DNA from: Octopus vulgaris
Lineage: Eukaryota
Direction of reading: 5' to 3'
Assembly: GCA_951406725.2 (NCBI GenBank)
Contig: OX597820.1
Location: 49,538,001 to 49,602,000 of the forward strand
DNA length: 64,000 nucleotides
Shown here: positions 12,961 through 57,440 of the stretch, one piece after another
Position numbering within the stretch: the stretch's first letter is position 1
How the letters are laid out: the number at the start of each line of letters is the position of its first letter
Position numbers and translations under genes: made by a program
Notes under the pieces: model-generated
Seen by the model: the letters and a program-made list of their open reading frames with translations, nothing else
Database searches by the model: none
What the model was told of the DNA's origin: nothing

Positions 12961-13320
12961 ACAATAATTAAGGGTTTAGCAACAAGTTGCTTCACCACAT
13001 ACCGAAAAATTTAGAAATAGCAGCCAAAAGACCATTATTTCTTTTCGCTACAAAATATGACTCCACAGATAACAATATTGTTATCTGTGGAGTCATATTT
13101 TGTAGCGAAAAGAAATAACGGTCCGGTCTTTTGGCTGCTATTTCTAAATTTTTCGGTACGTGGTGAAGCAACTTGTTGCTAAACCCTTAATAATTGTTAT
13201 AATTATATATAAAACTTCTTGTATAAGTTTTTACCGAATATGGTTCTTTTCCATACCGAAACTACTTGGTAAAATTTATTAATTATAAATTAATAATTTT
13301 TTACCCTATATCTATAATGA
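12961..13320. mobile_element. Fold-back element in (TA)n: palindrome of ~115-bp arms centred at 13076/13077 plus unique extension
   Basis: CAGATAACAAT|ATTGTTATCTG centre with no spacer; arms near-identical; homologous to 57090-57440. Confidence 0.85.
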
Positions 13321-13389
13321 TATATATATATGGGGGATGGGGCGTGTGTGTGAGTGTGCGTGTAGGTATGTATATCTTTTTTTATTTTA

Positions 13390-13835
13390 CATATTTCAAT
13401 CATTAGATTGCGGCCACGCTGAGCCACCGCCTTGAAGAGAAGTTTTAGTCGAACGAATTCACCCCACTATTTATTATTATATATATCTTAAGGCCTGGTA
13501 CTTATTCTATTAGGTCTATTTAGCCGAACTTCTTGGTTACGAGGAGGTAAGCATAACCAACACCATTTGTAAAGCGGTAGTGAAAGGGTACAAACACAAA
13601 GACACGCACACACACACACACACACACACACACACACACACACACACACACACACACACACACTCACACAACGCACACACACATATATATATATACAACG
13701 GACTCCCGTCAGTTTTCATCTACCAAATCCACTAACAAGGCTTGAGTAAAAGACACTTGCTCAAGGGGCCAAGCAACAGGACTGAACCCGTAGTTAGTAT
13801 GCAAACTTCTTACCACACAGCCATGCCTGCACCTT
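13390..13835 (-). mobile_element. tRNA-derived SINE family A (CORE-like, internal microsatellite)
   Basis: Similar to full copies at 20778 and 44960. Confidence 0.8.
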
Positions 13836-13871
13836 TATGTGTGTGTGTGTGTGTGTTTCTATATATACATA

Positions 13872-14065
13872 CGCTGGGCGAAATGCTTAGCGGTATTTCG
13901 CCTGTCGTTACGTTCTGAGTTCAAATTCCGCCGAGGTCGACTTTATCGGGGATCGATAAATAAAGTACCAGTTACGCACTGGGGTCGATGTAATCGACTT
14001 AATCCCTTTGTCTGTCCTTGTTTGTCCCCTCTATGTTTAGCTCCTTGTGGGCAGTAAAGAAATAT
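13872..14065 (+). mobile_element. SINE family B
   Basis: GGGCGAAATGCTTAGCGGTATTTCG...GAGTTCAAATTCCGCCGAGGTCGAC... Confidence 0.85.
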
Positions 14066-14184
14066 ATATGTATATATATATTCTTTTATTTGTTTCAGTC
14101 ATTTGACTGCGGCCATGCTGGAGCACCGCCTTTAAAAACTAGCACCCACTACAAGTGTATATATGTATGCATATCCATCCGAGC

Positions 14185-53719: not shown

Positions 53720-54451
53720 GTTTATAGTAACTTGCTATAAATAATTCAAGTGATTAAGCAACGGAATTCTTACATTCTCTCCATTGCCTGTAGTTCATGG
53801 TCACAGCAGAAAAAAATGGGAAAAGGTGTTGGCCCGGAGTACGGTGTGGGAAATGCACAGGAACAGCCAATCTGACTCACAGGGCTCGCACTTACGGATA
53901 GAGTCACACGTCGTAGAATGAAACACAAAAATTATCTTCTTTGTATTCTTTGAGGCACTCCTCTTTCTATCCAAAAATTGGCGAAGGAAGAAAAAAACAA
54001 CAACAAACAATTAATAGCAAGTTGCTCATTGATTGCATTCTTCATCGAAATATAATGAATTACATAAAAATTCCTTCTTTTGAAGTTTTTGTCTATTACA
54101 ATATGCTTTAGTAACTTTACCTTGTTGAGTAATTAGTTACGAATATTTCGAAATAAAAAAATATGCTTCACACGTACATTTAAGCGGCTGCAACAAAGAA
54201 GAAAAAACTTCTACCACTACTTGTAGTAAACACCACCACCATCACTACTACTACTACTACTACTGCTGCTGACATGGGGCGACAAATATCAAAAGGTTTC
54301 TAGGTGTTTAGAGAAGTTGTGATATTTCTTAGAAATGAATACTTAAGTTTCAAAAGGAAATAAAAAAAAAACATGTCGAAATTAAATTATAAGACTTTGT
54401 ATTATCAATGGGCAGAAACAGGACTGACGATGCATCAAGGCGCAATATATA

Positions 54452-54911
54452 TTGGGTCATCCCATAATTAATACGGTATTTTCAATTGCATGTACTAAAA
54501 GTCGGAGGGGCACGTGGTAAACTACCTGCGTCAACTTGCTATAAAGTAAATAGTAATTTTACCTTGATCTCCCATCAAAACAATACTCGGCCACATACAG
54601 CGAGGATGACATTGCAAAGGCTGGAGCAGTTTGAAGGGGAAACGATGTCCCACCCACCATATTCGCTGAACATTGCCTGATTTAATTATTATTTATTTTG
54701 CAGTCTTCAAAATCATTTGGACGGAAAAAAATATGAATTCTGCAGACAAGTGAACTTTGGAAGAGGGACCTTGCAAGTCTACCAGATTGATAGAAGAGCA
54801 GTGTAGAAAATGAACGAGAGTATATTTTAGATTTAAAAAGAACTTTGTTTATCATAATTTTGAAAAATAAGAGAAGTATAAAAAAACCGCATTATTTATG
54901 GGATGACCCAA
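54452..54911 (+). mobile_element. Internally deleted mariner element
   Basis: TIRs TTGGGTCATCCCATAA / TTATGGGATGACCCAA, TA TSD; HQNNTRPHTAR...HPPYSLNIA resembles HDNARPH...HPPYSPDLAP. Confidence 0.9.
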
Positions 54912-55869
54912 TATATTTCATTATATAAGTTCTCGACTTGTTAGATAATTTCTATAAAATATCAATATGATTAGCACTAGTCCACAAAAATACTGAGTGC
55001 GACAAAAACTTATATTCACCGCTCTTGATAAACGCTTGAACAATCGAGCGGTGTGCGTCGGTCAAACTATAATAGCAGTCTAAAATAAAAACACACAAAG
55101 AAATAACAAAAATAATTTAAAAACCGGTAAAAGAGTAACTGATATTGAAACATTTATAAAAGAATGGTGAATGTGACATCTTTTCTTTTTTGTCACACTT
55201 TGTATTTAAAACTGACGACATAATATGTATTTCACTTCAGATATAAGATAGTATCACGAAATATACTACTGTGCAAAATTAGCTTTGTTTGATCAAAATA
55301 ATTTGTATTTCTTTTAAGCATGGATACAGGGGTTTCTAAATGATAGTCTGTGAAAGGTGATGCTGAACTACAAAAGACCGAGAACCCATGGTTGAGACAA
55401 ATATGGAAATCCTATGAATACGATAAAGTTACAGCGTTAAAACAAACTCCATTTTTCTTACACCCTTACATAAACGAACACCCAACGCCAAACAGTTCTA
55501 TGATATTGTCATGGAATTTTCCTCTATGACACAAAGGTTGTTCCTTGCTGTCTTCCGTTAGACCACAACCAATTCTAAGAAGATTAAGAATGACAGAAAA
55601 AACATGAAAGAAGAAGAAGAAGAAGAAGATATTGGACTCAGTACTTTGTTGATATTTGTCTCTAAAGTTTTTATAAAGCAAAGTTGACTTCGAAGAGATT
55701 TGAACGCATACTCAGCCTAACCAAACACTGTATATAACTATAAAAGATGAAAGTATCTGCTGTTTAGATTCGTGATCCGAATTTAAACTTCTGCCATCAT
55801 AAAACCAACAATCAAAGAAAGAATTTATGTTATTACTTTTAATCATTAAATTCCACACAACAACAAAAA

Positions 55870-56460
55870 TAACGGTTTCAAAATTTGGCAGAGAGCCAAC
55901 TATTTCAGGAGCGGGTGAAAGTCGATTGAACCGACGCCCAATGTTCAACAGGTAGCTATTTTATCCATTCCGAAAGAATGAAAGGCAAAGGAGACTTTGA
56001 AATCAGCGGAATTTGAACCCAAAACGTAAAGACGAGTGAAATGCCGCTAAGTATTTCGACCGGCATGCTAATGATTCATATTTCTTTGTTGCCCACAAGG
56101 GGACAAACAAGGACAGGCAAAGGGATTAAGTCGATTACATCGACCTCAGTGCGTAACTGGGACTTAATTTTTCGACCCCGAAAGGATGAAAGGCAAAGTC
56201 GACCTCGGCGGAATTTGAACTCAGAACGTAACGGAATTTGAACTCAGAACTGCTAAGCATTTCGCCCGGCCTGCTAACGATTCTACCAGCTCACCAACAT
56301 TAATAATGGTTTCAAATTTTAGCACAAGGCCAGCAAGGTCAAAGGAGATGTCTAGTTAATTATATCGACCTTGTGCTCAACTGCGAAAGGAGGAAAGACA
56401 AAGTTGACCTCGGCGGAATTCGACCTCAGAACGTTAAGAATCGGAACAAGTAGTGCAAAG
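55870..56460 (-). mobile_element. Nested/tandem SINE family B copies
   Basis: Repeated GAAAGGCAAAGTCGACCTCGGCGGAATTTGAACTCAG motifs. Confidence 0.85.
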
Positions 56461-57089
56461 TATTTCTTTCGACGCTCAAAGGAACAGGTAACTAGACCAA
56501 ACACATTCTTCTGAATTAGGCGACTCCATTAGCAACACAGTAATTAAGATCTATACAATGCAGATCATTAAATTCATAGTTGTTGACAAAAAATAAAATA
56601 AAACAGGTATTTTTTCAGAAAATAGTACACCTTCAAATTTTTCTCTCCAAATTCAGAATTTTAAAAATATAATTGGAAAAAAATTTACAAATTCACAAAT
56701 TTAAAAAAAAAATACTTAATTTCTACGTAGGTGGAATTTATCCCTTGAGGGTAAATTTATTCCAGCTCGGGAAATTCTACTTTAGATCAAAAATTTTTTT
56801 ACTTTGATCAAATTGTGCGATGTGTGAAATTTCAGGATTCTAGGGAAAAATTTGGGGATTCCAGTGGGAAAATAGCTTTTAAGTTAAAAAAAAATTCTAT
56901 ATCATGATTCGCATTGATTTCGCTTGATTCATGTTTGCATAATATTGATTTTAAGTATGTTAATGTTAAATTAAGATGTTAAGTAACAAATTGTCTTGTA
57001 TAGAAGATTACTTTTTTCTTATCGCATATGGGGGTAAAATTAGGATGATGAACTGATAAGAAAAAGAACGATACAGAGAATATATATAT

Positions 57090-57440
57090 ATCAATAATAA
57101 TAAAGGGTAAAATTAATTAATTAATTAATTAATAATTAATAATTTTACCAAGTAGTTCGGTATGTTAAAAGAACCATTATCGGTAAATTTAAACACATTT
57201 TTTTATATTTATGAGTATAATTAGGTTTCAGCAAAAAATTTTCTTCACCACATACCGAAAGTCAGAAATAGCAGTTAAAACTAGTTATTTCTCTACCATA
57301 AGAAAATCTCCCAGACAACAATACTCAACAACCCACGCAGGCAAAGAGAAAAAATAACGAGAAATAGCTAGTTTTAACTGCTATTTCTTGGTATGTGCTG
57401 AACCCTAATTATAATTATACTCATAATTATAAAAATTTAT
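57090..57440. mobile_element. Fold-back element in (TA)n, same family as 12961-13320 in opposite orientation
   Basis: Arms AGAAATAGCAGTTAAAACTAGTTATTTCTC / GAGAAATAGCTAGTTTTAACTGCTATTTCT with ~65-bp spacer; shared CTTCACCACATACCGAAA and terminal sequence. Confidence 0.75.

Follow-up and report, generated by a model that had tools for sequence, protein, structure and literature searches.

Head-to-head fold-backs in an octopus genome resemble Penelope-like insertions and include a candidate Penelope-dependent SINE

Introduction

What machinery inserts unrelated small repeats into an animal genome as inverted pairs joined at their heads? The question is raised by a stretch of 64,000 nucleotides from Octopus vulgaris (contig OX597820.1, positions 49,538,001 to 49,602,000; hereafter the window), AT-rich, microsatellite-dense animal DNA that contains six such fold-backs. 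A sequence-only reading had described them as small ribozyme elements from five unrelated families, set in (TA)n or (AAT)n runs, and had proposed that they are non-coding, retrozyme-like parasites mobilised by Penelope-like elements (PLEs). We analyzed the architecture of these loci, their ribozyme motifs and their relation to published PLE insertions. The results make it likely that the six fold-backs are single PLE insertion events and that one family, named E, is a short interspersed nuclear element (SINE) headed by a transfer RNA (tRNA) sequence and using PLE machinery.

Architecture of the six fold-backs

Local self-BLAST returned palindromes at 12947-13211, 27651-28666, 43010-43616, 49478-49769, 53180-53719 and 57200-57435, with arms showing 97.4, 99.4, 99.0, 95.6, 88.7 and 86.8% identity over aligned columns in the same order, the 57-kb alignment requiring 18 gap positions. 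The loci at 13.1 and 57.3 kb belong to a single family (77%), designated A, while those at 28.2, 43.3, 49.6 and 53.4 kb were named B, C, D and E respectively, and the five families are mutually unrelated in sequence except for microsatellite. Six palindromes from five unrelated families, with arms 87-99% identical, were thus confirmed, and the fold-backs exist as features of the sequence.

At all six loci an inverted copy is joined head to head (the strand sense of family A being deduced from its extension) and one arm is longer than the other, as had been proposed. The microsatellite flanks were also borne out at five loci, the 53-kb pair lacking them: all 10 outer ends of these five lie no more than 12 nt away from (TA)n or (AAT)n, compared with 7% of the window, a count that is half circular because the five long-arm ends were placed by the microsatellite border. 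None of the six loci showed coding sequence for a reverse transcriptase (RT) or an endonuclease (EN), nor an open reading frame (ORF) joining RT and GIY-YIG domains, and the whole loci are predicted to fold into long hairpins.

Structures of this kind might also arise as fold-backs of the assembly or of chimeric reads, as the 99% identity of the 28- and 43-kb arms would suit. However, substitutions and indels distinguish the two arms at every locus, unique flanks are present on both sides, a tail occurs on one arm, and the opposite-strand joints of family E described below recur in independent sequencing runs, three out of four across two organism labels. An artefact is therefore extremely improbable.

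Correspondence with Penelope-like insertions

Published PLE insertions display inverted pseudo-long terminal repeats (pseudo-LTRs), junction palindromes, an optional 31-bp tail and target-site duplications (TSDs) of 8-10 bp; the head-to-head arrangement is their commonest form, and mobilisation can occur in trans (PMC3846280). Both PMC3846280 and PMC8557442 report inverted copies arranged head to head, with palindromes at the junction and an optional tail of 30-40 nt; the latter also describes (TA)n targeting and the hammerhead-less Naiads. The minimal hammerhead ribozyme of PLEs has an extra base before stem II and a palindromic stem III, and dual minimal hammerheads are found on opposite strands, 100-700 bp apart (PMC4209133).

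The fold-backs share with PLEs the head-to-head copies, junction palindromes, one-arm 3' extension, AT-rich or (TA)n target, 8-10-bp TSD and minimal hammerhead. Close to the 3' end, as in PLEs, a minimal type I hammerhead is present in families B, C and E (in the solo copy and the family majority), takes a variant core in D and is absent from A, which in lacking a canonical hammerhead resembles the Naiads. The outward excess of the longer arm, to be set against the 30-40-nt PLE tail, amounts to 33 nt in E, about 25 in D, about 48 in C, about 110 in A and about 175 in B. Unlike PLEs, the six loci are devoid of RT and EN coding sequence, and E carries a tRNA-derived head. Since head-to-head copies, one extended arm and AT-rich targets constitute the published PLE pattern, the architecture is an already known one; the connection to PLEs proposed earlier is well supported, but the arrangement itself had been described before.

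PLEs account for 6.83% of the O. vulgaris genome (supplement of PMC13282606), and a 3' fragment of an EN-bearing (EN+) PLE lies within the window itself (62900-63869, minus strand). This fragment comprises a C-terminal GIY-YIG region, a T-rich untranslated region (UTR), a hammerhead variant at 62982 with a CCGAAGA core, 37 nt ahead of the (TA)n flank, and a (TA)n end. Its GIY-YIG EN portion (63183-63869) stayed below the Pfam cutoff (E 0.012) and has relatives at 43-46%; the fragment is unrelated in sequence to families A to E, and no longer PLE proteins turned up when they were searched for. Its hammerhead variant and (TA)n flank were counted in favour of a PLE origin, which is also supported by the match between the anatomy of all six loci and published PLE insertions. 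On these grounds we hold with considerable confidence that the fold-backs are PLE-driven.

Anatomy of family E

The solo copy of family E (17890..18172, plus strand) consists of a tRNA-derived head (17890-17962), an (AAT)n run, a hammerhead module with an intact core at 18051 and a predicted cut after 18086, and a tail (18140-18172), and is preceded by a short inverted stub at 17884-17887. At 53 kb the long arm (53138..53425, minus strand) lacks the first 7 nt of the head and has a decayed hammerhead and the tail, and the short arm (53427..53719, plus strand) has a full head, a decayed hammerhead and no tail; the 33-nt tail is thus found in the solo copy and in the left arm. The pair is flanked by a putative TSD (left copy 53130..53137, right copy 53720..53727) matching at 7 of 8 positions, a score equalled by 21 of 5000 random flanks. 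The order of head, (AAT)n and hammerhead module is common to the three copies, which occupy two loci within 64 kb and belong to an element of about 283 nt that is non-coding. A poly-Asn-led open frame ending in the hammerhead core was considered as the end of a PLE ORF and rejected, being at chance level.

The heads were scored against a list of tRNA invariant positions. All three match 17 of 18 invariants without gaps, as expected of a tRNA-derived head with A and B boxes, and rank top among about 127,850 positions, and 10 shuffles reached 15 at most. The 5' border of the element coincides with tRNA position +1 and is compatible with, short of demonstrating, a start by RNA polymerase III (Pol III). 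A second tRNA-derived SINE, with no hammerhead match, was observed in the window, its heads at 23216-23290 and 42728-42800 (plus strand) agreeing with 16 and 14 of the 18 invariants.

Because E ends in a hammerhead motif and has two alternative 3' ends, it is likely a SINE copied by a PLE and not by a long interspersed nuclear element (LINE). An ordinary LINE-mobilised SINE, with a passively captured hammerhead body and inversions due to twin priming, is quite unlikely, even if the short end of E falls within a 9-nt tandem repeat, which we take to resemble LINE-type tails. Octopus genomes are also rich in RTE, Dong-R4 and CR1 LINEs (PMC13282606). Two properties of E speak against such an origin, namely the fixed 33-nt optional extension past the repeat and the duplication of head-to-head arms, with the 3' end present in both, each a PLE signature. 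Twin priming inverts part of an element and duplicates none of it.

In kind, E is closest to Sm-alpha of schistosomes, to judge from published descriptions. In the high-copy Sm-alpha and Sj-alpha elements, as in E, a hammerhead comes after a tRNA-related Pol III promoter (described via PMC6765202 and PMC2770079), a likeness of anatomy. They are described as tandem repeats from which the ribozyme frees monomers, and the accounts cited state neither a PLE tail nor head-to-head insertion. E differs in being solo or head to head in the window, in its mid-element minimal hammerhead of PLE type and in its two 3' ends.

Family E in sequencing-run contigs

The contigs of 4 of the 24 sequencing runs listed were aligned to the solo copy of E. 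Three are DNA runs from three studies under two octopod-related organism labels, and the best-matching one may be the source sample itself; the fourth, X19 (3,722 contigs), was only guessed to be RNA and was not used as evidence of transcription. No RNA run was named among the carriers listed, which bears neither way on expression. The DNA runs contributed 30,698, 21,916 and 28,379 aligned contigs, figures that are not copy numbers, and the summed depth over the head and the hammerhead module reached millions, about three orders of magnitude above that outside. We infer that E is present in tens of thousands of copies.

In all three DNA runs loose 5' ends clustered at 17884 and 17890, i.e., 6 nt upstream of tRNA position +1 and at that position, and loose 3' ends at 18145 and at 18170/18172. 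Among the pieces listed, 5 of 32 bridge the head and the hammerhead module, and 4 of the 15 joints listed connect opposite strands at the E head, each in two runs. Taking the majority letter at each position restores hammerhead stems I and II, and the minority changes are mainly CpG transitions, as expected for neutral decay. Run X1 contained one row joining 18139 to 17884. The same 2-nt spacer between head starts, which may be inherited or added by the RT, was repeatedly observed at the E head-to-head junctions (17884-17890, 53425-53427 and the contig loose ends). When metagenome contigs were scanned twice with exact patterns, one scan yielded no locus and the other a single locus, which was dropped because only 27 nt around the seed matched.

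Taken with the anatomy, these data indicate that E was probably mobilised in trans as a unit by PLE machinery. As to the fuller description, a Penelope-dependent SINE in which a Pol III promoter is fused to a PLE pseudo-LTR, with tens of thousands of octopod copies and a PLE footprint of two internal RT start sites and head-to-head double insertion, we rate its chances as about even.

Ribozyme motifs and families A to D

Hammerheads were searched by descriptor scans of our own, based on a CUGAnGA core and a palindromic stem III. The window contains five exact-core cleavage sites, whereas 30 local shuffles averaged 0.07; four of the five are mirror copies, so that they represent three independent families. 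Both arms of B and of C have the intact CUGAnGA core and palindromic stem III, both arms of D have the altered core CUGUUGA, and at 53 kb neither decayed arm of E matched the descriptor. The earlier claim of outward-pointing ribozymes throughout was therefore too wide: the motifs stood for B, C, D (with its variant core) and the solo copy of E, and not for A or the decayed 53-kb arms. Rfam returned no hammerhead and no tRNA at E<=10 over the 17.9- and 43.3-kb stretches, and over the window only microsatellite and hairpin microRNA noise among the 150 of 235 matches listed. When eight stretches were folded as monomers, seven gave unremarkable z-scores, the exception being the long stem II of B (z -4.75), and cofolding of two copies did not clearly form the dimer hammerhead.

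Two same-strand hammerheads were found at none of the six loci. With the ribozymes on opposite strands, neither cis dimer cleavage nor release of circles from the fold-back loci would take place, and the predicted long-hairpin folding likewise makes circle release unexpected. Since each hammerhead in a read-through RNA would be base-paired to its complementary copy, the fold-backs appear to be dead-end scars for the ribozyme.

Family A comprises a short arm (12960..13076, minus strand) with no hammerhead and a (TA)n end, and a long arm (13077..13310, plus strand) with the 3' extension of about 110 nt and a (TA)n end; at the second locus a long arm (57092..57345, minus strand) has the same 3' end as at 13.3 kb and faces a decayed, more 5'-truncated short arm (57357..57435, plus strand). 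The long end falls at the same place in the family at the two loci, and the short end at about the same place. No credible hammerhead was detected in A, as the lone relaxed match at 13068 was at shuffle level and Rfam gave nothing near the gathering score; a decayed hammerhead, which would carry two or three core changes, was rejected. A conserved 7-bp stem around a short hairpin and a GAAAC word were observed in the long-arm extension (13229-13280 and 57140-57190) and are possibly a candidate RT start signal. Family A may be, at best, a hammerhead-less, Naiad-like element.

The long arm of B (27479..28154, minus strand) has an extension of about 175 nt and a minimal hammerhead with a long stem II at 27950-27847, and the short arm (28163..28662, plus strand) has a T-rich leader similar to the 3' UTR of the 63-kb PLE and a hammerhead at 28367-28470. 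In C the hammerheads lie at 43214-43182 in the short arm (43015..43304, minus strand) and at 43412-43444 in the long arm (43318..43663, plus strand), which ends in a tail of about 48 nt. An ATG at 43597, 19 nt inside the short end, opens a frame of 22 codons through the tail to the end, and is a possible PLE ORF start. The B and C loci may accordingly be ordinary truncated PLE ends, i.e., pseudo-LTRs.

The long arm of D (49457..49632, minus strand) contains a 152-nt unit, a CUGUUGA hammerhead at 49553-49523 and about 25 nt of terminal redundancy, and the short arm (49628..49768, plus strand) a hammerhead at 49697-49727 and a (TAT)n end. The first 26 nt of the long arm are repeated at its end, and its 60-nt 5' and 3' ends align better than 500 of 500 shuffles. 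No such match between the ends was seen in A, C or E, and the result for B was borderline (23 of 500). Animal non-LTR retrozymes are non-coding, type I hammerhead elements with a unit of 150-400 nt that have been proposed to be non-autonomous PLE derivatives (PMC7229834, PMC7761336, bioRxiv 10.64898/2026.07.22.740005). The likeness is best in D, non-coding and the only family with a self-closed unit of 150-400 nt, and a closed retrozyme-like unit is shown for this family alone. Retrozymes, however, are direct tandem repeats with circular RNA, whereas the copies observed here are inverted and D spans about 1.15 units with a changed core. Of the proposed population of non-coding, retrozyme-like elements, D therefore remains as terminally redundant and E as a SINE, while B and C are possibly truncated pseudo-LTRs and A has no ribozyme.

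It might be argued that all families, including the E module, are 5'-truncated ends of autonomous PLEs, E having arisen by repeated PLE insertion into the (AAT)n of a LINE-driven SINE. The preference of PLEs for AT-rich microsatellites, the T-rich leader of B and the ATG-led frame through the tail of C would agree with this explanation, which we nevertheless consider unlikely. In all three copies the E module adjoins (AAT)n by its 5' side, with an unvarying junction, and its 3' end lies in unique DNA, the opposite of A to D and the 63-kb PLE, whose 3' ends adjoin the microsatellite. Furthermore, the 53-kb pair is symmetric about its heads and has a TSD-like flank, and the terminal redundancy of D leaves no room for an ORF.

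Mechanism of insertion

Insertion by PLE machinery might proceed as follows. The PLE protein would recognise a signal that follows the hammerhead closely in the RNA, bind there and nick both strands of AT-rich DNA, usually in a (TA)n or (AAT)n run. One complementary DNA (cDNA) would start at a distal internal site, giving the long arm with the tail, and the other at a proximal site, giving the short arm; the two cDNAs would meet at the RNA 5' ends and be joined head to head. The template RNAs would be truncated PLE ends (likely in B and C, and perhaps hammerhead-less in A), the 152-nt retrozyme-like unit in D and a predicted Pol III transcript in E. Family E probably originated once, by fusion of a PLE end with the (AAT)n tail that followed a tRNA-derived head, and internal initiation would spare it the need for a defined 3' end.

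Biochemical data on an anole PLE protein are in line with this scheme. In vitro, the protein cuts and extends both strands at AT-rich DNA, uses uncleaved RNA and starts at two internal sites bounding the tail (PMC11167929); subtraction from figures in the same paper places its main start 85-92 nt beyond the hammerhead cut. The long end of E lies 86 nt beyond the predicted cut, and was counted as support on account of this agreement.

Several observations weigh against the reading of the fold-backs as PLE insertions and of E as a PLE-dependent SINE. No autonomous PLE sharing its 3' end with any family, and no autonomous partner for E, was found within the 64-kb window; family A has no hammerhead, and the extensions of A and B far exceed the published tail. 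ARAGORN and Rfam did not call the E head a tRNA. The missing TTTT terminator is unremarkable, being absent also from 1042 of 2000 shuffles, and it does occur in the 53-kb short arm. The cluster of loose ends at 18145 derives in part from a 9-nt duplication in some copies, such as the 53-kb long arm, and so overstates the short end, the listed pieces ending at 18139-18146. The alignment skipped the (AAT)n at 17957-18004, dropping joints and loose ends there, and 84 further joints and 1039 further loose ends exist beyond those listed. Peak depth over the hammerhead module exceeds that over the head by a factor of 1.3-1.7, so that head-less copies or a separate parent are possible. The contigs were aligned to the solo copy, and the junction of the 53-kb pair itself is not among the joints listed. 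Finally, fold-back synthesis would account no less well for the near-coincident 5' ends of the arms (some 0-15 nt apart at five of the six loci) and for the short inverted stubs that precede the E head.

This last point brings in a variant of the PLE origin, which we regard as a real though less than probable possibility, wherein a single cDNA snaps back at its 3' end and primes itself, with a variable stop. Such self-priming would produce both the coincidence of the 5' ends and the short inverted stubs: upstream of the E head, the consensus of the loose ends is the reverse complement of the first 8-10 nt plus a 2-nt spacer in 3 of 3 DNA runs, and one joint in run X6 has an inverted head stub of about 20 nt. 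It has also been argued from junction palindromes (PMC3846280). On the other hand, the agreement of that consensus was only 0.39-0.47, the four opposite-strand joints among those listed combine a near-full arm with an arm truncated at 18016-18121, truncation differs between the two 57-kb arms, the two family A loci show a preferred end point of the short arm, and both strands were extended in the published in vitro data. Double priming from two start sites accounts for the long and short arms and for the unequally truncated joints, and is favoured only slightly over fold-back priming.

Other features of the window

A long coding exon of heparan-sulfate sulfotransferase type (Pfam Sulfotransfer_1) occupies 3656-5680 on the minus strand, with relatives at 96% and, from Argonauta hians, at 52%; the six fold-back loci all lie 5' of it. 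A dispersed single-armed repeat at 14490-14720 (plus strand), related to 42478-42584, carries a minimal hammerhead-like motif with a CCGACGA core at 14581 and a (TA)n end. Two copies of a repeat of about 400 nt, at 21540-21960 (minus strand) and 37420-37800 (plus strand), contain decayed hammerhead-like words, are not palindromic and gave no match in the descriptor scan.

A seventh palindrome (37807-37942), TA-flanked and similar to a miniature inverted-repeat transposable element (MITE), was kept outside the fold-back set and is presumably of pogo/Tigger type. A broken LINE end at 49820-51040 (minus strand), which we take to resemble Dong/R4, gave no Pfam match and is inserted in the (AAT)n run common to the short arm of family D. 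Heavily decayed coding remnants at 24600-26600 (minus strand), with no link to family B, include a YGLAKSHK word presumably resembling a PLE reverse transcriptase motif.

Implications

The general architecture adds little to present knowledge, being a known PLE pattern encountered several times in one PLE-rich genome, and family E matters more. No description of a tRNA-headed SINE with a PLE tail was found in the accessible literature on Penelope, SINE, tRNA, hammerhead and octopus, although the Zenodo, Repbase and Dfam libraries, subscription papers and bioRxiv supplements may contain family E. The O. vulgaris repeat paper (PMC13282606) makes no mention of ribozymes in its supplement and leaves the majority of active SINE families without a class.

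That PLEs mobilise non-coding elements with hammerheads has so far been argued from co-occurrence and phylogeny, and the SINE literature we found describes LINE partners. If our interpretation is correct, a family whose anatomy combines a Pol III head with a PLE tail would demonstrate trans-mobilisation directly at the anatomical level, would extend the partners of SINEs beyond LINEs and would narrow the cis signal to about 170 nt. Its copies would provide thousands of natural, coding-free records of PLE integration, in which the fixed RNA 5' end separates double priming from fold-back priming and the formation of inverted repeats and tails becomes testable by junction counts. Part of the large unclassified SINE fraction of octopus genomes would then have been misassigned.

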